From a virus (taxonomy: Duplodnaviria; Caudoviricetes), in IMG/VR virus record IMGVR_UViG_3300022177_000003, positions 1-43,406 of that record: a stretch of DNA of 43,406 nucleotides; one strand, 5' to 3'. Shown here one piece after another: positions 858-42,561 of the stretch; within the stretch, counting starts at the first letter, position 1; each line of letters opens with the position of its first letter. A program made the translations under genes and the position numbers. The notes under the pieces are model-generated. The model did no database searches. It was not told where the DNA came from and saw only the letters and a list, made by a program, of their open reading frames with translations.

Positions 858-1645
858 CCAGCTTCCCGGCACCACCAGACCACGCGGCCTATGATCCGGC
901 ATGACGCGCCCAGGTCGCCGCGCAGATCGATTTCCGCAGGCGGATAGCTGGGGTTGAAACTTTTCAGAACGATCTTTCCCGGCAGAACGTCGAGCTGCTT
1001 GACCACGATGGCGTCATCGATGCCCACGGCGTAGATGCCGCCGGGGATCACTTCGATCTGCGACTGGTCGATGAGCACGGTGTCGCCATTGCGGATTTCC
1101 GGCTCCATGCTGTCCCCGGTGATTGTCATGAGCACCATCTTGTCCGGGTACCCCTTGCTCCGCGCCCATTCCTCCCGGAATGCGTAGCGTCCGGCCACGT
1201 CGCCGTTGGTTTCCAGACTGCCCGTCCCGGCCGAGAGCCGTGCCTTGACCTTGGGAATGAGCAGGAAACTCTCAACCCCGGTCGTCTCGGCGGCGGGTGT
1301 TTCCCGCGCCTTCACATCATCCGCTGATGCCGGACGAGTGAGACGACCGGGACGTTGAGTCAAATCCACGGGTGTTGAGCGCACAACAGCGTCGAAACAC
1401 CGATCCACAGCGCCAGCCGTAAGCAACATGTCCAGACTGACCTCGTACTTCTGCGCCAAACGGTAAGCCCACTCCAAAGGAAACGAGCCGCGCTGCTTCG
1501 CGCCCGTGACGCTCGGCGTCTTGATTCCCAGCGCTTCGGCAAGCTCCGATTGCGACCGAAGCCCTGTGACGCGGCGGATGCGCTCCCACACCTCGTTGAA
1601 CGAGGGAAGCCCGGTTGCGGCTTTCTCTTCGGAAGAAGCAATCAA
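854..1645 (-). CDS. CI/LexA-type repressor (HTH plus S24 peptidase)
   Basis: N-terminal HTH (SQSELAEALGIKTPSVT), LSAGTG Ala-Gly site, GDSMEP serine, VVKQL lysine; divergent from the early operon. Confidence 0.92.
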   Translation of the reverse strand: MIASSEEKAATGLPSFNEVWERIRRVTGLRSQSELAEALGIKTPSVTGAKQRGSFPLEWAYRLAQKYEVSLDMLLTAGAVDRCFDAVVRSTPVDLTQRPGRLTRPASADDVKARETPAAETTGVESFLLIPKVKARLSAGTGSLETNGDVAGRYAFREEWARSKGYPDKMVLMTITGDSMEPEIRNGDTVLIDQSQIEVIPGGIYAVGIDDAIVVKQLDVLPGKIVLKSFNPSYPPAEIDLRGDLGASCRIIGRVVWWCREAG

Positions 1646-5461: not shown

Positions 5462-6061
5462 ATGTCCGGTCGCAAGTCCGTGGCGGTTCTCTCCGCGCAA
5501 GCGCGGGGACACGCCTACGGTCGTCAGGCGGTGTGGGAGGCCGTACGCGAACTGCGCAAATTCACTCTAGCCGAGGTCGCCGAGGCGTCGGGTGAAAACG
5601 AAGGAACCGTGCGGAGCTACGTGAAAAATCTGGTCGCCGGCGGCTATCTGAATCGTTCGGCCCCGAACGGCCCGTTCGTGGCGGTCCGCTATGAACTCGC
5701 CCGAGACGACGGCGTCGAGGCTCCCCGTCTGCGGCGTGACGGCGGGCCCGTACTCCAGGGTCTCGCCCGCGAGCAGATGTGGCGGACCATGAAGATGCTC
5801 CGCTCCTTCACGGCCCTGGACCTGGCCGTGGCCGCCTCCACCGAGTCGGTTCCCGTGGCCGAGGACGACGCCAAGAACTACGTTCGCCACCTTGCCCGCG
5901 CGGGCTATCTGGCTGAACTGCGGCCGGGTTCGCCGGGCCGTCCGGGGCTCCATCGACTGGCCGTCGACACCGGTCCCCGGCCGCCCATGGTCACCCGGGC
6001 CAAGGTGGTCTTCGACCCGAACCTGAACCGCCTCGTCTGGCACGAGGAGGTAGACGCATGA
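5462..6061 (+). CDS. Early phage protein with tandem winged-HTH-like regions
   Basis: Two similar FT(L/A)xE/DL...Y..L..AGYL segments; position after MuB. Confidence 0.7.
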   Translation: MSGRKSVAVLSAQARGHAYGRQAVWEAVRELRKFTLAEVAEASGENEGTVRSYVKNLVAGGYLNRSAPNGPFVAVRYELARDDGVEAPRLRRDGGPVLQGLAREQMWRTMKMLRSFTALDLAVAASTESVPVAEDDAKNYVRHLARAGYLAELRPGSPGRPGLHRLAVDTGPRPPMVTRAKVVFDPNLNRLVWHEEVDA

Positions 6062-6411
6062 CTGCCGTGGAGACCGCGCGCCGGGCCCGAAACGGGGATT
6101 TGCCCGACTGGGTTCGGGCTCTGGCCGAGGAGTGCGACCGCACGAGCCAGAGGGCGGCCGCCGCGCGCATCGGCTATTCGGCCGCCGCCGTGAACCAGGT
6201 CCTGGCGGGCAAGTACCGCGCACCCGAGACCCGCGTCGAGTTGGCCGTGCGTGCGGCCCTGCTTGCGGCCGAGGTGTGCTGCCCCGTGGCGGGCGTGATT
6301 CCCGCCGCTCGTTGTCTCGAAAACCAGCGCCTTCCCTGGGCCTCCACCAATCCCCAACGGGTGGCGCTTTACCGGGCCTGCCGCAACGGCTGCCCGCACA
6401 GCAGACTCTAG
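6058..6411 (+). CDS. Early HTH-containing phage protein
   Basis: SQRAAAARIGYSAAAVNQVL HTH; Cys-rich C-terminus; ATGA coupling. Confidence 0.7.
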   Translation: MTAVETARRARNGDLPDWVRALAEECDRTSQRAAAARIGYSAAAVNQVLAGKYRAPETRVELAVRAALLAAEVCCPVAGVIPAARCLENQRLPWASTNPQRVALYRACRNGCPHSRL

Positions 6412-6419
6412 GAGGAACC

Positions 6420-6602
6420 ATGCTCAAGGCGAAGATCGAGAACGTCGCGGCCCGGCTGGGCGAATTGGCCGGACGTGTGGATGAGGAAACGTGGGATGTG
6501 CTGCGCAACGCCCGCGCCGAGCTCAAGGATGCGGCCGAGCAGGCCGGAAACCTGGAAACCGTGTTCGCGCCCGCAGTCCCCGAGACCGCGACGCGCCAGT
6601 GA
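6420..6602 (+). CDS. Small hypothetical protein
   Basis: GGAGG RBS; MLKAKIENVAARLGEL..., 60 aa. Confidence 0.65.
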   Translation: MLKAKIENVAARLGELAGRVDEETWDVLRNARAELKDAAEQAGNLETVFAPAVPETATRQ

Positions 6603-6612
6603 AGGAGAAGGC

Positions 6613-7143
6613 ATGACCCAGAGAAGCAAGCCCAAGGCCGTGGTGATCGCCGAAGTCCGACAGGCCGAGGCCGCCCTGGCCGAGATCGCCGAGATCGAAC
6701 GCGTGGTGGAGAGTCACGAGGCGCATATGAACCAGGATTTGGACACGGCCCGCGCCCGGGCCAAGGCCCTCTGCGCGCCGCTGGCGGAACGCCGCCGCGA
6801 CCTGGAGCAGGCCCTGGCCGCCTTCGCCGAGTTGAACAAGGCGTCCCTGTTCTCCCGGCGCAAATCCCTGGACCTGGGATACGGCGTCATCGGCTACCGC
6901 CTGTCCACGGCGGTGCGCACGGCGGCCAGGACCACCTGGGAAATGGTCCTGGAGCAGTGCAAACGATTCGGCTTCACCGAGGCCGTACGCAACCGCGAGA
7001 CCGTGGACAAGGATGCGCTCCGGGCCTGGCCCGAGGAACGTCTGGCCACGGTGGGAGTCCGACGGGAGGTCAAGGACGAGTTCTACATCGAAATCAATCG
7101 GGAAGCCGTCAACGCTCTCGGCGGCAAGGAGGCGGCCGCCTGA
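6613..7143 (+). CDS. gam: Mu Gam-like host nuclease inhibitor (DNA end protection)
   Basis: Coiled-coil N-terminus, KSLDLGYGVIGYRLS, ETVDKDAL and DEFYIE motifs; position. Confidence 0.88.
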   Translation: MTQRSKPKAVVIAEVRQAEAALAEIAEIERVVESHEAHMNQDLDTARARAKALCAPLAERRRDLEQALAAFAELNKASLFSRRKSLDLGYGVIGYRLSTAVRTAARTTWEMVLEQCKRFGFTEAVRNRETVDKDALRAWPEERLATVGVRREVKDEFYIEINREAVNALGGKEAAA

Positions 7144-7207
7144 TGCGAAACCGGCCCCTTGCGGGCCGGTCGTCCGGGTGCGGCGGCCCGGACCTGACGA
7201 GCAGCCG
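7144..7207 (+). ncRNA. Type II hammerhead ribozyme
   Basis: GAAA 7147-7150, stem III CCGGCCC/GGGCCGG, GUC triplet 7169-7171, stem I GTCCGGG/CCCGGAC, CTGACGA 7194-7200, open stem II TGC/GCA. Confidence 0.9.
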
Positions 7208-7230
7208 AGACGCAGAACATGAACGGAGCA

Positions 7231-7255
7231 ACAAAAACCCCGGCCAAGGCCGGGG
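7231..7255 (-). terminator. Intrinsic terminator of the tRNA-like gene
   Basis: CCCCGGCC-TT-GGCCGGGG followed by TTTTTGT on the minus strand. Confidence 0.85.
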
Positions 7256-7262
7256 CATTGTT

Positions 7263-7336
7263 AGCACACGGAGGGATTCGAACCCTCACCTGCCGATTCG
7301 TTAGGTCGGCGCTCTATCCGCTTGAGCTACGTGCCG
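7263..7336 (-). tRNA. tRNA-like gene or pseudo-tRNA (anticodon position reads AAC; Arg-like D loop; no CCA)
   Basis: D arm GCTC-AAGCGGATA-GAGC, T arm GAGGG-TTCGAAT-CCCTC, canonical spacing. Top two acceptor pairs and C31-A39 are mismatched. Confidence 0.75.
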
Positions 7337-7351
7337 ATTAAACGGACTTAA

Positions 7352-7380
7352 AATATACTTTGCCAATTAGAAACTGTCAA
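7352..7380 (-). promoter_or_regulatory. Sigma70 promoter driving the tRNA-like gene
   Basis: TTGACA (7380-7375), 17 nt, TATATT (7357-7352). Confidence 0.85.
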
Positions 7381-7400
7381 ACATTTTGAGATCAAATAAC

Positions 7401-7886
7401 ATGGTTGATAGCCACGACCTCCTCCGCAAGGCTCTCCTGGCCAAGGTCCACATCGCCAAGGTCCGCCTGGGTCTGTCCGAGGACGAATACCGCAACCTCC
7501 TGGAGGATCGGTTCGACGTCGCCTCGGCCCGAGAGCTGTCCACGTCACGTCTGGAATCCCTGCTGGAACATTTCGGCAGACTCGGCTGGCGGCCCGAGCC
7601 CGGCTTGCGGCGAAGGAGCCGCACGACTCCGCACGCTCCGAAGAAACGGCCCGACGACCGTTCCGCGCTCTTGTCCAAGATCGAGGCCCTACTGGCCGAC
7701 AAGGGTGCCGGGCAGGCCCGTTACGTGCCCCGGAACTACGCCGCCGCGATCCTCAAGCGCATGTACGGCGTGGAGCGTCTGGAGTGGGCCCGTCCCGAAC
7801 ATCTGCGTGGCGTGATCGCGGCCCTGAGCCGGGACGGTCGCAGGAGGCGCGCTGCCGAATCCGAGGAGCCCAGGCGTGGAGTCTGA
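7401..7886 (+). CDS. Mu gp16/GemA-family protein
   Basis: LLAKVHIAKVRLGLSEDEYRNLL and SKIEALL...RMYGVERLEW motifs. Confidence 0.85.
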   Translation: MVDSHDLLRKALLAKVHIAKVRLGLSEDEYRNLLEDRFDVASARELSTSRLESLLEHFGRLGWRPEPGLRRRSRTTPHAPKKRPDDRSALLSKIEALLADKGAGQARYVPRNYAAAILKRMYGVERLEWARPEHLRGVIAALSRDGRRRRAAESEEPRRGV

Positions 7887-8280
7887 CGTCTTTCCCGGCA
7901 TCCTGGCCGACGTGGCCCGCGTGGCCGGCCCCCTGGCCGCAGTCCGCCTGGCACGGGCCAAGGGCGGAGGCAGGGCCTACATCCCCAGGCCTGAGAACCT
8001 CCACCCCGGCCACTGGCTTTCCGCACTTCTGGGCCAGGAACCGGCCCGGGCCGTGGCCGAGGTTCTGGGCGGCGGCGAAGTCGAGGTACCCCTCGGTCCG
8101 GCCGCGGGCAACCGTGCCCGGGTCTGGGCCTCCATCCGCCGAGGCCTGAAGCAGGGCCTCAGCGTGGAACAGGCCGCCCGTCAGGCCGGGGTCTCGGCAC
8201 GCACCGTGCGGCGGCACAAGAACGGCAGAACACCTGAGAAAAATGCATGGGGCAAACTCCCTGGCGTGGATTTTCCTTGA
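7876..8280 (+). CDS. Mor/C-like transcriptional activator
   Basis: G.LADVA..AG...A..LA...GG...YIP N-terminus plus C-terminal HTH; follows gemA. Confidence 0.75.
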   Translation: MESDVFPGILADVARVAGPLAAVRLARAKGGGRAYIPRPENLHPGHWLSALLGQEPARAVAEVLGGGEVEVPLGPAAGNRARVWASIRRGLKQGLSVEQAARQAGVSARTVRRHKNGRTPEKNAWGKLPGVDFP

Positions 8281-8334
8281 AAAAATGAGATGCTCAGGAT
8301 AACGGATCACAATCCTGCCTAGGGCGGTCCGATA

Positions 8335-9471
8335 ATGAATACAGGGTGCACAATAGTCGACTTGTTCTGCGGCTGCGGCGGATTCACCCTCGGTGCCGAA
8401 TTGGCCGGGTTTCATTCGCTGGCGGCGATCGATGTGGATCCGGTCCTTCAATCTGCATACCGCCTCAACTTTCCTCGGACAAAAGCGATCCAGGGAAGTG
8501 TAGCCGACCTGAATGCTTCCGCTTGGCGGCATTTTCTCGGCAACACATCACCGGACGGCGTGATCGGCGGCCCCCCCTGCCAGGGATTCAGCCGCATTGG
8601 AAAACGACGGAAAGACGACCCGAGAAACAGTTTGGTTCACCACTTTTTCAGGCAAGTGCTTTCACTGTGCCCGAAATTCTTCATCATGGAAAACGTGGAG
8701 GGCCTGCTCGATGCCGAAAACGTGGGCATCCTTCAAAGCGGAATTGATCTGGTCGCGAAACGCTATCGAGTATGCCCTCCCACCATCGTGAACGCCGCTG
8801 ATTTCGGAGCCGCAACGAATAGACATCGCGTGGTGGTACTCGGCTACGACCCGAAGCGCATGGAAGCCGTATCCATAAACGATTTTCTCGACTCGCCAGT
8901 CACATGCTCGTCGACCGTTCGAGACGCTATAGCGGATCTCCCCTCCCCGATTCCGGACATGAAGACCCCCGACGACTTTGGGTGGGCTTCCTATCCCGAC
9001 ACAGACGCTTCCCAACTTTCGGCCTACGCGGTACGGCTCAGAAGCCTTCCTCCGGACGGGCTCGGCTGGGCCGAGGCCGTAGCGAGATTTCAGACCGGAA
9101 TGGTTTCCGGATTGTTTTCGACCAAACACGGTAGCGACGTTTCCAAACGTTATGCCGATATTCTTCCTGGGAAAAGCGATCCCGTGAGCAGATCGCAGAA
9201 ACTGGCATGGGACGGCCTCAGCCCCACTTTGCGGGCTGGGACGGGAAGAGACAAAGGAGCTTTCCAAGCCGTTCGCCCTCTACATCCGGCGGAAGGGCGG
9301 GTCATTACCGTCCGCGAGGCAGCCAGATTGCAAGGCTTTCCCGATTGGTTCGTCTTTCATCCCACCAAGTGGCACAGTTTCCGCATGATTGGGAACAGCG
9401 TTTCACCTTTCGTTTCGTATTCGATCCTTAGGCACCTGAGCGCGAAACTCGCGCTCCCTCTTGCCGCCTGA
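8335..9471 (+). CDS. DNA (cytosine-5)-methyltransferase
   Basis: DLFCGCGG, GPPCQGFS, ENV, ITVREAARLQGFPD, IGNSVSP motifs. Confidence 0.96.
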   Translation: MNTGCTIVDLFCGCGGFTLGAELAGFHSLAAIDVDPVLQSAYRLNFPRTKAIQGSVADLNASAWRHFLGNTSPDGVIGGPPCQGFSRIGKRRKDDPRNSLVHHFFRQVLSLCPKFFIMENVEGLLDAENVGILQSGIDLVAKRYRVCPPTIVNAADFGAATNRHRVVVLGYDPKRMEAVSINDFLDSPVTCSSTVRDAIADLPSPIPDMKTPDDFGWASYPDTDASQLSAYAVRLRSLPPDGLGWAEAVARFQTGMVSGLFSTKHGSDVSKRYADILPGKSDPVSRSQKLAWDGLSPTLRAGTGRDKGAFQAVRPLHPAEGRVITVREAARLQGFPDWFVFHPTKWHSFRMIGNSVSPFVSYSILRHLSAKLALPLAA

Positions 9472-9510
9472 TTCTCTATCGGGTAAACGTTCATACCGAA
9501 CCAGGGGGGT

Positions 9511-11232
9511 ATGAGCGTGGCGAAAAAGAAAAGCAGTTCGTTCTTCGTCGATACGCGGCCGAACAAAAAGCTCGTCGTAGATGGTCTCACGCGCGACCTC
9601 AGCACCGAGGCCTGCATCTTCGATCTTATCGATAACTCAGTCGATGCAGCTCGGGAAACAATATTAAAAAGACCTGAAGGCGACGATAGAGAAAACAGGC
9701 CGGAACTTCCGTTCTCCGGTTTCGCCATCAAACTCGAATTCGATGGAAACGGTCTGCGGATCGAAGATAACTGTGGCGGAATTCCTGTGAAACAGCTCAA
9801 GCAGATGGTGTTTCGTATTGGTCAGCCTTCACGGCACGCCAACGGAATAGGAGCGTTCGGAATCGGCCTGAATCGAGCGCTCTTTAAGCTAGGAAAAATA
9901 AGCAATCTCATGACGGATACGGGGGCAGAACGAGCCCACTTGCTTCTCAATGTTGAAGAATACCTCAAAAGCGAAAAATGGTCATTGCCAGCTCTGCAGT
10001 TCCCAACGAGCGGAGAAATAGGGACTAAAATTGAAATTAGCGGACCGGCTGAGGAGATTTCCAAATCATTTTCAGATGATAAATTTATCAATAAGATTCA
10101 AGGATCGATCGGATTAATTTACGGACGTTTTATCGATGCTGGGCTTTCAATTGAAGTTAACAACCATGTCATCGAAAACAAGACAATTGGGATTCGTGAA
10201 AACAGCCTTTTTCAACCAGAATACCAATTTTTCAAGACAAATGATAATGTATCAATTTATATAGAATGTGGACAGCACATAAAACATCATTTTTCAAATG
10301 AAGAAGGATATGACAGGGAAGTAAATAGCACATTAACACAGGAATATGGATGGACTGTTTTGTGTAATGATAGAGCTATTGTGTTTTCAGATCAAACCAC
10401 TAAGACAGGCTGGGGTTTAAAATTTCACTCTGAATTTTATGGCTTTGTTGGAAAAGTAAATTTTAAATGCGAAGACCCATCATTGTTGCCATGGAATACA
10501 GCAAAAACAGATATTGATCTAAACAATAAAGCCTACCAGTTTGCGCTAGATGAAATGCGAAAATTCACTGCAAAATGGAGATCTTTTGCTAATAAGTTGA
10601 AGATAGCAAAACGGTCTGGTGAAGAATTTAAACCACTGCCAAAGCCTTTAAACAAAAAAGTTCGTCATGACACAATTAGCATAAATCAACCCGTAGACAA
10701 TACAAATAAAAAGAAAATAAATAAAAACGCCCCGAAAGAAGATCATAATGAATATACGACAGTATTGCCACAAGACATAGCTGAAAATAAATGTAAAGAT
10801 AAGCTGTTATCCCTTGTACACGAAGCAAAAGAAATTGATATCATGCAGTTTTCATACGCATCTATGGCCTTAACGCGCATATTATACGAAACATCTGTAA
10901 TCGATTATTTGACCAGGCACGGATTTTTCAAAAAACTTAAAGATTATTGCATCGCTTCCCGCGAACAAAAAAAATGTTCACCACTAAATGAAAAAGAAAA
11001 AGGTAACTTGAATCCGAAAATGGAAGAATTAAATTCTTTTATTGAAAAAAACTCAGATGTATTCGGCGTAGAATGTAATGCACACATAAAAACAAGCCAT
11101 CGCAGAGTAGCTTATCACATGCCAATGCTAAATGGAGTAATGCATAACCACGTTCAAACAATTAGCCGCTTTAAAGCGCTTGAAATCCGCGATGAACTTT
11201 TACCAGTCCTCAGACATTTTATTGAAGAATAA
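9511..11232 (+). CDS. GHKL/MORC-type ATPase with uncharacterised C-terminal helical domain
   Basis: DLIDNSVDA, IEDNCGGIP, IGAFGIGL and GTKI GHKL motifs; AT-rich. Confidence 0.85.
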   Translation: MSVAKKKSSSFFVDTRPNKKLVVDGLTRDLSTEACIFDLIDNSVDAARETILKRPEGDDRENRPELPFSGFAIKLEFDGNGLRIEDNCGGIPVKQLKQMVFRIGQPSRHANGIGAFGIGLNRALFKLGKISNLMTDTGAERAHLLLNVEEYLKSEKWSLPALQFPTSGEIGTKIEISGPAEEISKSFSDDKFINKIQGSIGLIYGRFIDAGLSIEVNNHVIENKTIGIRENSLFQPEYQFFKTNDNVSIYIECGQHIKHHFSNEEGYDREVNSTLTQEYGWTVLCNDRAIVFSDQTTKTGWGLKFHSEFYGFVGKVNFKCEDPSLLPWNTAKTDIDLNNKAYQFALDEMRKFTAKWRSFANKLKIAKRSGEEFKPLPKPLNKKVRHDTISINQPVDNTNKKKINKNAPKEDHNEYTTVLPQDIAENKCKDKLLSLVHEAKEIDIMQFSYASMALTRILYETSVIDYLTRHGFFKKLKDYCIASREQKKCSPLNEKEKGNLNPKMEELNSFIEKNSDVFGVECNAHIKTSHRRVAYHMPMLNGVMHNHVQTISRFKALEIRDELLPVLRHFIEE

Positions 11233-11243
11233 TACGGTTATTC

Positions 11244-11681
11244 ATGATGGATATCGTCTCGCCTGAGCGAAGAAGTCAAATAATGAGGGCGATATGTCGG
11301 GAGAATACCGCACCGGAAATGCTGGTAAGAAAAGCGGCTCACCGGCTCGGCCTACGTTTTCGCCTGCACGTGAAGCCGTTGCCGGGACGGCCGGATTTGG
11401 TACTGCCGAAATGGCGGACGGTGATTTTCGTCAACGGCTGTTTCTGGCATCGCCATCCAGGCTGTAAAAGAACAACAATTCCGAAATCCAACACGGAATT
11501 TTGGCAGCGCAAGTTCGCTGCAAACGTACAGAGGGATCAGATCAATTACGCTCGGCTCGAAGAATCTGGTTGGCGCGTTTTGATCGTCTGGCAATGTCAA
11601 ATCCGCTCCGTCGAAGATGCCATGAATATTTTGAAGCCCTATTTCCAATGTTCCAAGCAGAAAAGTTTGAACAACAAATAG
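11244..11681 (+). CDS. vsr: Very-short-patch repair endonuclease
   Basis: MDIVSPERRSQIM, T.PE, LPGRPD, FVNGCFWH.H, GWRVLIVW motifs. Confidence 0.93.
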   Translation: MMDIVSPERRSQIMRAICRENTAPEMLVRKAAHRLGLRFRLHVKPLPGRPDLVLPKWRTVIFVNGCFWHRHPGCKRTTIPKSNTEFWQRKFAANVQRDQINYARLEESGWRVLIVWQCQIRSVEDAMNILKPYFQCSKQKSLNNK

Positions 11682-11689
11682 GAGCTGTC

Positions 11690-12505
11690 ATGAAATTATG
11701 CTACATTGACGAAAGCGGAACGGGAGATGAACCGTACGCAGTTATGGTCGGCATAATCATCGACTCATACCGAATGCGCCCGACGAAAACTGCATGGAGC
11801 AACGTCTTAAGAACGTTGAGCACAGATGTCGGTAGAACAATCGAAGAGATTCATACTCGCGACTTCTATTCGGGGAACGGTCCATGGCGGGGAATCGACG
11901 GAAGGGAACGAGCCAGAATCATAGGAGCCATTTTTGACTGGATTGAAGAAAGAAAGCATGAGATCGTCTTTTGTTCAATTGATAAGGAGAAATTCAACGA
12001 TGAATTTCCCGGCACAGATAGATACAACGATATTAAAACAATATGGAGAATGCTCGGATTGCACCTTGTCCTATGCCTTCAAAAACACCATCAAAAGTGC
12101 TCAAAGAATAAAGGCAACACGGTATTGATCTTCGACAACGAAGAAACGGAAAGATTGCATTTCACCGATTTGATCCTAAATCCTCCTGACTGGACGGATA
12201 GTTACTATTCCCGCGGGAAGAAGCAGGAAAAATTGGATCAGATCATCGACGTCCCGCATTTCGCGGATTCCAAGCATGTTCCGCTTTTACAAGTTGCAGA
12301 TTTTGTCGCTTATTTTTTGCGAAGATATGCTGAACTTGAAAATGGTGCTGCAGAACGCTACGCAGGAGAGCGCAATACCGTTGCATCCTGGGCTCAAAAA
12401 GCAAAGAGGCAAAGAATACCTATTGCGCGCATCTATCCGAGACGAAACAGATGTGAATGCGCCGAATTATTTTTCACTTACGCTCCGGAATGCTTAAAAA
12501 CGTAA
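11690..12505 (+). CDS. DUF3800-like protein (RNase H-like fold)
   Basis: MKLCYIDESG, EIH, IFD, S...LLQVADFVAY pattern; GGAG RBS. Confidence 0.8.
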   Translation: MKLCYIDESGTGDEPYAVMVGIIIDSYRMRPTKTAWSNVLRTLSTDVGRTIEEIHTRDFYSGNGPWRGIDGRERARIIGAIFDWIEERKHEIVFCSIDKEKFNDEFPGTDRYNDIKTIWRMLGLHLVLCLQKHHQKCSKNKGNTVLIFDNEETERLHFTDLILNPPDWTDSYYSRGKKQEKLDQIIDVPHFADSKHVPLLQVADFVAYFLRRYAELENGAAERYAGERNTVASWAQKAKRQRIPIARIYPRRNRCECAELFFTYAPECLKT

Positions 12506-38029: not shown

Positions 38030-38038
38030 ATTTCTGGC

Positions 38039-38084
38039 TGGCGGAGCCGACGAGACTCGAACTCGCGACCTCCGACGTGACAGG
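38039..38084 (-). other. 3' half of tRNA-Asp(GTC), an att site of an integrated element
   Basis: CCTGTCACGTCGGAGGTCGCGAGTTCGAGTCTCGTCGGCTCCGCCA: anticodon loop, T arm and CCA present; D arm and 5' half absent. Confidence 0.88.
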
Positions 38085-38511: not shown

Positions 38512-40143
38512 ATGTCCTCTGACGACATCAAGAAAAAGGTGGAGGCCAGGGTGAAGGAGGAGGCGGAGAAGGAGCCCGAAAAGGCTCCGGAGCCGCTGTC
38601 CGACGAGTTCATCCTCCAGTGTTTCCGGGCCAACCGCGTGGGCGACGCCCTGCTCTTCAACACGCTCAACCGGGGCCGGTTCGTCTATGTCGACATCTGG
38701 GGCCGGTACCTGAAGTGGGCCGGGCACCACTGGGCCGAGGACCAGCAGCAGAAAACGGTCCTGGCCGAGGTGGAGACGGTCTGCGAGGAGTACCTGCGCC
38801 TGGTGGCCAAGCTCGCCAAGCAGGCCGAAGAGCTGACCGACGCCGAGAAGAAGGCCAACGAGGGGCTGCGCAAGTCCATCCTCGGCCGGGTGGCGCTGCT
38901 GCGCGACGCCGCTGGCCGCAAGAACCTGCTCGACTGCGCGCATACCATCCGCGACCCCCTGGCGATCACCGGCGACGAGCTGGACCAGCAGCCCTTCCTG
39001 CTGGCCACGAAGAACGGCGTGGTGGATCTGCGCACCGGCGATTCCCGGCCCGGCCGGCCTGAGGACTACATCCTCAACGCCAGCCCCGTGGAATGGCAGG
39101 GCATCGACGTGCCCTGCCCGGAGTGGGAGAACTTTTTGCTCTCCTGCCACGACGGCAACAAGGAGATGGTGGCCTTCCTGCAGCGGGTCTTCGGCTACGC
39201 CATCCTGGGGGCGCGGGACGACCACGTCTGGTTCGTGTTCTACGGGGTGCGCGGCCGCAACGGCAAGGACACCCTGTTCAAGACCCTCATGGCCGTGCTG
39301 GGCGGGGATCTGGCCAACGTCATTCAAACGGAGATGCTCCTGGACTCCAGGGCGCCGCGCAACAGCGCGTCGCCCACCCCGGACATGCTCTCCCTGCGCG
39401 GCAAGCGCATCGCCTTCGCCAACGAGTCCGAGGACGGCCAGCGCTTCGCCATGTCCAGGATCAAGGCCCTGACCGGCGGCGGCTACCTGCAGGCCCGCGG
39501 GCTCCAGGACAAGCTCTACACGACCTGGAAGCAGACGCACCTTCTCTTTTTGATGACCAACGAGATCCCGCGGGCCAAGGCCGACGACGACGCCTTCTGG
39601 TCCCGGCTCCTGGCCGTGCCCTGGAAGATCCGCTTCGTGGACGAGCCCGCGGCCCCGGACGAGCGGCAGCGCGACCCGCAGATGGAATACAAGCTGTTGG
39701 CCGAACTGCCGGGCATCCTGGCCTGGCTCGTGCGCGGCTGTCTGGCCTATCAGCGCGAGGGGCTCAACCCGCCGGAGTCGGTGCTGGCCTGCACCCGGGA
39801 GCGGCGGGAGGCCTTCGACGACGTGGGCCGGTTCCTGGCCGAGTGCTGCGAGATGGAGCGGGTTCCCGAGGGCGGGGAGTCGGAGCTGCGGACCGGGGCC
39901 TCCGACCTGCTGCGGGCCTTCAACTGGTGGCTGCACAAGAACGTGGACTCCTCCTACTCCTACAGCCCCCGGCGCTTCGGGGACGTGATGACCAGGAAGG
40001 GCGTTCCCAGGAAGAAGTCCGGTTCCATGGTCTATCTGGGCGTCCGCCTTCTGGAGTCCGTGGAGGCCGAGATGGCCGAGGACGCGGAGGAGGAGAAGGC
40101 GTCCAAACCCGAGGGCAAGAAGCGGAGGAAGCTCTTTGACTAG
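38512..40143 (+). CDS. P4/D5-family SF3 helicase (primase-associated)
   Basis: NGVVDLRTG, YGVRGRNGKDT Walker A, L.GKRI...NE, IKALTGG, DDAFWSRL motifs. Confidence 0.92.
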   Translation: MSSDDIKKKVEARVKEEAEKEPEKAPEPLSDEFILQCFRANRVGDALLFNTLNRGRFVYVDIWGRYLKWAGHHWAEDQQQKTVLAEVETVCEEYLRLVAKLAKQAEELTDAEKKANEGLRKSILGRVALLRDAAGRKNLLDCAHTIRDPLAITGDELDQQPFLLATKNGVVDLRTGDSRPGRPEDYILNASPVEWQGIDVPCPEWENFLLSCHDGNKEMVAFLQRVFGYAILGARDDHVWFVFYGVRGRNGKDTLFKTLMAVLGGDLANVIQTEMLLDSRAPRNSASPTPDMLSLRGKRIAFANESEDGQRFAMSRIKALTGGGYLQARGLQDKLYTTWKQTHLLFLMTNEIPRAKADDDAFWSRLLAVPWKIRFVDEPAAPDERQRDPQMEYKLLAELPGILAWLVRGCLAYQREGLNPPESVLACTRERREAFDDVGRFLAECCEMERVPEGGESELRTGASDLLRAFNWWLHKNVDSSYSYSPRRFGDVMTRKGVPRKKSGSMVYLGVRLLESVEAEMAEDAEEEKASKPEGKKRRKLFD

Positions 40144-42307: not shown

Positions 42308-42435
42308 CTTCCACCGGCCCTTGGTGTTGTCTGCGGTCAGGAGCTCGTAACTCCTTCAGCCACAGGCGGCCCCACGCCCGTCAGTCTTCGTGGGATTTCT
42401 GCTTTCCAGGCCCTGGAAAGCCCCTCGGCGCTCCA

Positions 42436-42509
42436 GCCGGGTGTTGGGGAAATACAAGACCCGCAAGGGGAACTACCCAGCCGTCCTGTGGCGGTTACGA
42501 GCACCCGGC
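42436..42509 (+). ncRNA. c4-type antisense RNA
   Basis: Closing stem GCCGGGTG/CACCCGGC, GCAA-loop hairpin, and CCTGTGG and TTACGA segments complementary to upstream and downstream targets. Confidence 0.78.
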
Positions 42510-42561
42510 CCTTGTCGATCGTACGGCGAGGGCCAATCGTAATACCCACAGGAGCCTTGCC

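Follow-up and report, generated by a model that had tools for sequence, protein, structure and literature searches.

Phage-encoded tRNA-Arg mimics that apparently cannot be charged: a rare RNA family with a possible decoy function

Introduction

Two answers are usually given for why a phage carries a tRNA gene, codon supply and the replacement of tRNA that has been cut, and both need a tRNA that can be charged. The locus described here lies in a 43,406-nucleotide stretch of viral DNA, which we call the window, and it raises the question of what a phage could gain from a tRNA-like gene that keeps tRNA shape and arginine identity and has given up its acceptor end, a combination that points to a non-translational use. 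We compare the gene with six further copies found in viral contigs and conclude from their sequences that they appear to form a new and rare family of structurally selected tRNA-Arg mimics of phages, for which we infer a function below.

Results

A tRNA-like cassette in a Mu-like phage

The window holds a Mu-like transposable phage with genes for a repressor, transposase A and B, gam, gemA, mor, head and contractile tail. The closest relatives of its Gam protein in named genomes come from Desulfovibrionaceae (53-59% identity), so the phage host is probably a member of that family. In runs X1 and X2 it lies on contigs of equal length, 37,763 bases, which would correspond to about 98-37,860 of the window; this suggests that the Mu-like genome ends there and that its flanks vary, so the phage may be actively transposing. 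Beyond it, the 3' half of a tRNA-Asp(GUC) at 38038-38083 (minus strand) agrees with a Desulfovibrionaceae tRNA-Asp at 43/46 bases and is followed by a primase gene (38512-40143), probably marking the attachment site of a second, P4-like element, and a match to Rfam sRNA-Xcc1 lies at 42435-42516 (plus strand; 63.7 bits vs a gathering score of 53). Within the phage, a lower-GC accessory cassette after mor (8335-12505, plus strand) looks like a restriction-type defence module, with a cytosine methyltransferase, a HATPase protein with weak similarity to PD-Lambda-5_A, a Vsr endonuclease and a DUF3800 gene.

The mimic gene lies between gam and gemA, on the strand opposite to both (Table 1). A sigma-70-type promoter, TTGACA-17-TATATT, matching 11/12 consensus bases, a cloverleaf scoring 43.3 bits against Rfam RF00005 (gathering score 29) and a terminator-like hairpin with an 8-pair stem follow one another on the minus strand, where the original prediction had seen a gene with its own promoter and terminator. 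The promoter is the sole site in 6000-9000 (shuffle mean 0.3), and an equally good one was found just upstream of 0.1% of 1500 random minus-strand positions; transcription would start near 7343-7346, giving a leader of 7-10 nt. The energy of the terminator is by itself unexceptional in this GC-rich genome, where 11% of random 45-mers fold as well.

Table 1. Features of the mimic cassette and its neighbours, in window coordinates
Feature	Position	Strand	Basis or remark
Mu Gam-like gene, left neighbour	6613..7143	+	gene annotation
Type II hammerhead ribozyme of the phage early transcript	7143..7210	+	Rfam 72.1 bits; a neighbour, outside the mimic
Intrinsic terminator-like hairpin and T run	7230..7256	-	8-pair stem 7256-7237
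tRNA-Arg(ACG)-derived mimic, 74 nt (derivation as read from sequence)	7263..7336	-	ARAGORN, Rfam, alignment
19-nt anticodon arm: stem GCCGA/UCGGC and 9-nt loop CCUAACGAA	7292..7310	-	starts directly after D stem
A20, D loop	7317..7317	-	invariant in 7/7 members
8-nt repeat AAUCGGCA, leader/5' copy	7332..7339	-	can displace the anticodon stem; window member only
Sigma-70-type -10 hexamer TATATT	7352..7357	-	promoter scan
Sigma-70-type -35 hexamer TTGACA	7375..7380	-	promoter scan
gemA-like gene, right neighbour	7401..7886	+	back to back with the mimic promoter

Two features of the locus were absent from the first reading of the window. One is a competing fold: the 8-nt repeat recurs at 7339-7332 and 7298-7291, so that the 5' leader can replace the anticodon stem, and a nearest-neighbour model predicts the leader-swapped fold to be 1.6-4.3 kcal/mol stabler than the cloverleaf for four candidate start sites. 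Since the leader favours this competing fold, the cloverleaf of the window member would need leader removal or tertiary contacts. The other is a type II hammerhead ribozyme, which starts at the gam stop codon just past the mimic terminator and matches the full Rfam model at 72.1 bits vs a gathering score of 37. Its core is intact, with CUGANGA and GAAA, an open stem II and GUC as the NUH triplet (7169-7171), and cleavage is predicted after 7171. One or two copies of the hammerhead occur, there without the mimic, in 18/20 related gam loci scanned. Type II hammerheads flanking prophage genes are described in the accessible part of PMC3088659, and set against these (RF02276) the window hammerhead is an ordinary member. 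Processing of the mimic by the hammerhead in the manner of a theta ribozyme was considered and ruled out, as the ribozyme lies on the opposite strand and occurs without the mimic.

The letters of the gene are identical in contigs of the four DNA runs covering it (X1, X2, X3 and X4), which speaks against an assembly slip and is not a measure of independent spread, three of the runs being possibly the source of the window. In the metatranscriptome runs X6 and X7, where the phage is barely covered, the only match at the gene was an 18-nt T-arm match from contigs of other organisms; with so little of the phage covered, missing coverage of the gene carries no weight.

Related loci have the same slot without the cassette. 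At the default threshold ARAGORN called a tRNA in 0/102 gam-neighbour loci, 28 of which extend to gemA, and a lowered threshold yielded noise only; two empty-site alleles, L046 and L005, have the hammerhead core 11-21 nt before gemA. Because the gam-neighbour loci are without the tRNA and these two bring the hammerhead that close to gemA, the cassette is, on sequence comparison, an insertion in the hammerhead-gemA slot. A GemA query against viral contigs gave no matches. A T-arm motif scan of the gam-neighbour loci found only L095, whose tRNA-like element (1443-1513, plus strand; Rfam tRNA 47.4 bits) is a different one: it lies upstream of a gam homologue, its D and T arms are intact, a 5-bp stem carries a 4-nt loop (CAUA), and CCA is missing.

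Cloverleaf and loop register of the window member

ARAGORN, the scoring check called for at the outset, reports tRNA-Val(aac) at 7263-7336 as its sole tRNA call in the window, and Rfam has no match for the mimic other than the general tRNA model. The cloverleaf of the original prediction stands, at a length of 74 nt through the discriminator and not the 73 nt first given. The D stem (4/4 pairs), the T stem (5/5) and A15:U48 are intact. In the anticodon arm five Watson-Crick pairs close the 9-nt loop CCUAACGAA at 7305-7297, and the two loop readings noted earlier, AAC or a 9-nt loop containing ACG, concern a single helix, the 7-nt AAC reading needing a C31-A39 mismatch. The acceptor has pairs 1-2 mismatched, a G-U at pair 3 and Watson-Crick pairs at 4-7, followed by U at position 73 and AAC where CCA would be expected, so the open acceptor top and missing CCA were correctly seen. 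The folding z-score of the window core is only -0.46.

A family of at least seven members

Homologues were sought by pattern scans of 2.9 million viral contigs in which some tRNA positions were fixed and others left free; the patterns fixed parts of the D or T arm, which partly builds invariance into those parts. With the loop core and parts of both arms fixed, five matches were obtained, all five with C31 and A39 at the free positions, and dropping the D arm from the pattern returned these five and one chance match, L121, which has the loop and no D arm (15.8 bits) and was dropped. Freeing positions 34-37 gave six matches, of which five read AACG, and the sixth, L126, was dropped as a CAU tRNA in an array. 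This CAU-anticodon tRNA (L126, 282-354, plus strand), part of a phage tRNA array, also has a C31-A39 mismatch and no CCA. Freeing 31, 32, 38, 39 and the T arm gave 17 matches, six of them tRNA-shaped and all six with YYUAACGAA: the five earlier members and a new one, L142, with the loop UUUAACGAA. The other 11 of the 17 have no T arm and assorted letters, and they were dropped.

The family has seven members including the window, with the loop consensus YYUAACGAA; this number is a lower bound, the motif having been sought in viral contigs and in 401 genomes from the order to which the host probably belongs. Exact 26-nt and 19-nt stretches of the gene had no other copy in the viral contigs and, in metagenome contigs, matched only the window's own record. 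The motif occurs in 0/401 genomes of the probable host order (the order of G001), which are too few to be informative on such a rare element. BLAST of the members against annotated phages and plasmids brought up ordinary tRNAs among the matches listed, and eight unannotated matches all (8/8) proved to be ordinary genes for Arg or Val tRNAs that lack the loop and were set aside. Annotation tools call tRNA-Val(AAC) for six of the seven copies, so that some odd bacterial A34 tRNA calls would be accounted for by a separate RNA family. In L107 a second, weak tRNA-Gly(UCC)-like sequence ending in CCA (1483-1561, plus strand) follows the family member at a distance of about 230 bases; ARAGORN called it at a lowered threshold only.

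Conservation argues for selection on shape

The covariation across homologues that had been proposed as a check is present. In the seven-sequence alignment 91.2% of 147 cells are paired and 14 of 21 pairs are changed on both sides; 0/500 shuffles reached this value, and slid controls gave 27-46%. The structure was drawn from these same seven sequences and the D stem is partly fixed by the patterns, and the informative parts are those that were never fixed, namely the acceptor, the anticodon stem, position 20 and the 15:48 pair. In the 9-nt register the anticodon stem is paired in 32/35 cells, with two-sided changes at 5/5 pairs, and 15:48 is matched in 7/7 members (A-U in four, G-C in three). 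The T stem is paired in 35/35 cells. The canonical features kept are the D, anticodon and T arms, U8, A14, G18, G19 and the T loop.

What is not canonical is the register of the anticodon stem. A canonical tRNA has a 7-nt loop closed by 31:39 on a 5-bp stem after an unpaired position 26; here the stem starts at 26, leaving no unpaired 26, and 31/39 is C-A in six members and U-A in one. The loop geometry varies among members, in that L142 can close U31-A39 and L124 fits an 8-nt loop better (4/5 pairs vs 2/5). The cloverleaf is the exact minimum-energy fold in three of the seven cores. Genes for tRNA-Arg(ACG) and (UCG) of a Desulfovibrionaceae genome (L109, 1499-1575 and 1641-1717; L114, 1492-1568) have a 27:43 mismatch, and such a host mismatch may ease the one-base stem shift of the mimic.

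These data bear on the possibility that tRNA-Arg(ACG) genes were captured and decayed independently, with a duplication of an anticodon A recurring by chance. The loop CUAACGAA is indeed the Arg loop CUACGAA with one A added, the family is rare and patchy (six other records in 2.9 million, 0/102 gam-neighbour loci, 0/401 genomes), L142 and L124 have extra mismatches, and the window acceptor resembles a perfect stem that has slipped by 2 nt. A plain A insertion into tRNA-Arg(ACG) would, however, give a register that is paired at the level of chance (16/35 cells, 45.7%, with 378/500 shuffles as high), whereas the shifted register shows two-sided changes at every one of its five pairs; because the anticodon stem covaries in that shifted register, a plain one-base insertion does not explain the loop. 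Breaks also fall mainly in acceptor pairs 1-2, with the T stem, 15:48 and A20 left untouched. The six homologues are not ordinary tRNAs beside which the window's changes would be private mutations: they share the loop, lack CCA and mostly have a broken acceptor top. Simple decay, which had been left as an option at first, is largely refuted, and we regard it as very improbable. The pattern points to a family derived from tRNA-Arg(ACG) and under selection for shape and loop, apparently not for charging.

Arginine identity without an amino-acid end

As a host reference we used 27 distinct tRNAs of one Desulfovibrionaceae genome, taken from the best 30 of 50 loci. A20 is the arginine identity base for ArgRS, and tRNA-Arg identity as a whole rests on A20, C35, G or U at 36 and a purine at 73, against A35, C36 and A73 for tRNA-Val. 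Position 20, which none of the scan patterns fixed, is A in 7/7 members, in 6/6 host Arg tRNAs and in 0/21 other host tRNAs, and positions 16, 17 and 20a vary. When the host genome is searched with the family model, Arg(ACG), Arg(ACG) and Arg(UCG) come first among 50 matches, the top two at 66.7 and 65.1 bits, with the Val tRNAs far below; once the anticodon arm is masked, only four of the seven members have an Arg tRNA as their top host match. The earlier description of the D loop as Arg-like is thus strengthened, arginine being better supported than valine by the invariant A20 and the three best host matches. ACG falls at 34-36 only if the loop is numbered from its 3' side, and it is preceded there by A, not U.

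The acceptor end tells a different story. CCA is encoded in 0/7 members, the discriminator is a pyrimidine in six and a purine in one, with A73 in none, and acceptor pairs 1-2 are unpaired in 7/14 cells vs 3/35 for pairs 3-7, so that the 7-bp stem is broken in six members. All 27 host tRNAs (from the best 30 of 50 loci) end in CCA and have 1:72 and 31:39 paired. The exception within the family is L122, with a full 7-bp acceptor stem and G73, which could be charged after CCA addition. Its acceptor stem, loop closure and discriminator set the mimic apart from canonical tRNA-Arg and tRNA-Val, though it is built like a tRNA-Arg. The idea that aminoacylation features are degraded in an RNA whose expression signals look intact, first put forward for the window, is upheld by the missing CCA throughout and the broken acceptor top in six of seven.

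L122 is nonetheless one reason to consider an odd decoder that works, in which the RNA would be trimmed, given CCA by the host and charged, and would read GUU through AAC or the four-base CGUU with a +1 frameshift. Many phage tRNAs have no encoded CCA, and enlarged-loop tRNA-Arg mutants act as frameshift suppressors in the laboratory, though our literature search did not find the latter; ARAGORN and Rfam accept the mimic as a tRNA, U33 and purine 37 are canonical in the 7-nt reading, L122 retains its acceptor and G73, and the 8-nt loop of L124 is read aacg. Yet the acceptor top is broken in six members and A73, which valine charging needs, is found in none. A Val anticodon on an Arg body would lead to miscoding, 16 of the 328 Val codons counted in 17 genes of the window are GUU, and the Desulfovibrionaceae genome already has tRNA-Val(GAC). 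We think such a decoder quite improbable.

ArgRS itself is the main rival partner, because A20 and the C and G of the loop are ArgRS identity elements, and by these bases it would be as natural a partner as a nuclease or toxin. An uncharged competitive ligand of ArgRS, or of another housekeeping tRNA-Arg enzyme, would lower the supply of Arg-tRNA and thereby slow growth, elicit a stringent response or hinder superinfecting phages. It would account for invariant features that coincide with the identity set (A20 and, with ACG numbered from the 3' side, C35 and G36), for an A20 kept in all members despite variable neighbouring D-loop positions and for an acceptor end dead in six of seven. Such a ligand made from a near-consensus promoter (11/12 in two members) would, however, be a constant cost to the lysogen, and an unmodified tRNA-Arg without CCA would suffice for it, which leaves the fixed, re-registered loop unexplained. 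We consider this reading unlikely. TadA needs a UACG motif, and the extra A destroys that motif, which counts against TadA as the partner.

Carriers share the RNA and little else

One of the six further copies is in a related Mu-like phage and five are in unrelated phages. The related phage (L119) has the same hammerhead-mimic-gemA order, with a different upstream gene, DUF3164. The five non-Mu carriers have G+C contents of 30-67% and place the mimic differently. In L120 it is antisense between genes of the replication region, in L122 it has late genes on one side and a serine integrase on the other, in L123 it precedes holin and endolysin, in L124 it precedes an invertase and terminase, and in L142/L154 it is antisense and upstream of a small terminase. 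In L123 the gene before the mimic is presumably a Q-like antiterminator, and it had no family match. The mimic is antisense to flanking phage genes in four of seven carriers. Promoter matches just upstream are strong in two of the seven (11/12 in two members), plausible in three and at background level in two; a hairpin follows the mimic 3' end in 6/7, and a terminator scan called it in 3/6 members scanned.

Apart from the two Mu-like phages, no protein common to unrelated carriers was found in records that are 13-100% complete, and the RNA is the sole DNA common to most carrier pairs. This argues against the RNA antitoxin entertained in the original prediction, with the limit that several of the records are incomplete. 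More broadly, a cis or local partner might make the RNA an antitoxin, a regulator acting antisense on the early transcript and gemA, an att remnant or a processing tag. Two arrangements fit a local role, the antisense position opposite the gam-hammerhead-gemA transcript in two Mu-like phages and the adjoining serine recombinase genes in L122 and L124. Against it, the gene context differs from lineage to lineage, and Mu-like phages integrate by transposition without an att site, which speaks against an att remnant there. The complement of the mimic loop occurs nowhere else in the window, leaving no base-pairing target there, and PADLOC gave no match for 14 of 17 proteins tested, the three matches belonging to the methyltransferase cassette 1-4 kb away. 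We rank this as the least probable of the readings considered.

Discussion

What has been kept is the elbow, with the arginine marker and an unvarying loop, and what has been released is the amino-acid end, so the RNA would be a ligand of a protein that recognises tRNA-Arg, not a decoder. Our preferred reading, to which we give a probability of about 0.4, is that it is an uncharged decoy, predicted to be made by the lysogen, that competes for a nuclease or toxin of the host or of a competitor recognising tRNA-Arg. Its own promoter would drive transcription of the mimic antisense to the early operon, whatever the state of the phage repressor, and the RNA would fold as an L-shaped tRNA and stay non-aminoacylated. 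The partner would be able to bind the re-registered loop without cutting, and a loop prone to miscoding would be barred from the ribosome by the dead acceptor end. In a temperate phage, a gene that escapes the repressor should be of use to the lysogen or to the induced phage; with a tRNA-Arg-directed nuclease or toxin as partner, protection would fall to the lysogen or, after induction, to the phage.

Several points weigh against the decoy: L122 looks chargeable, the loop is not uniform, the leader favours a competing fold, promoters are at background level in two of seven members, and the family consists of seven sequences only. What probability is not taken up by the readings discussed here is left to other partners.

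The literature offers precedents that favour the decoy. PMC12409363 describes tRNA as a recurrent target of defence nucleases, a preference of colicin D for tRNA-Arg(CGN) and the reading of D loop and anticodon stem by AriB, and it suggests that viral tRNAs may inhibit AriB competitively. The accessible portions of two preprints on tRNA-cutting defences, PMC13692257 and 10.64898/2026.07.14.737667, mention no tRNA decoy, and we found no description of an uncharged tRNA decoy in phages in the literature searched. Nor did that literature, which was searched without supplements and most subscription papers, contain a description of this loop or family.

If the decoy reading is true, phages would counter tRNA-directed immunity with an RNA decoy, a mode different from the mere replacement of cut tRNA by phage tRNAs. 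The family would represent a dedicated non-coding anti-toxin gene made from tRNA-Arg and carried by temperate phages of very different bacteria, an uncharged and uncuttable look-alike that jams tRNA-targeting defence nucleases or bacteriocins, a proposal we advance as tentatively as the decoy itself. At 74 nt the mimic is a test object with clear mutable determinants in A20, the loop and the stem register.

Compared with bacterial tRNA-Arg(ACG) (RF00005), the mimic has the same cloverleaf, D stem, A20, D-loop GG, AGGY variable loop and T loop, and it has the letters ACGAA at the 3' side of its loop. Its own are an anticodon arm of 19 and not 18 nt with the stem shifted by one base, the lack of an unpaired 26, the loop YYUAACGAA and the lack of CCA, together with, at the level of the family, an acceptor top that is open and a pyrimidine discriminator, each in six of seven members.

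Phage tRNAs with altered anticodon loops have been proposed to resist host nucleases and restore translation, according to the accessible part of PMC10264068. The mimic resembles such nuclease-resistant phage tRNAs, as presented there and, for T5 vs PARIS, in the accessible part of PMC12409363, in being phage-encoded, in having changes in and around the anticodon loop and in a plausible link to tRNA-cutting defence. As those same parts present them, the nuclease-resistant tRNAs are chargeable, belong to lytic phages, replace cut host tRNA and are usually clustered, whereas the mimic is a single gene, found mostly in temperate-looking phages and apparently unable to carry an amino acid, and for this reason it could not rescue translation by replacement. 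In its tRNA-Arg(ACG) body and its 8- or 9-membered anticodon loop the mimic is also like the enlarged-loop tRNA-Arg frameshift suppressors. Those suppressors are selected mutants with a normal acceptor stem and CCA, in contrast to the mimics, which make up a natural, dispersed family with an acceptor end that appears to be dead.
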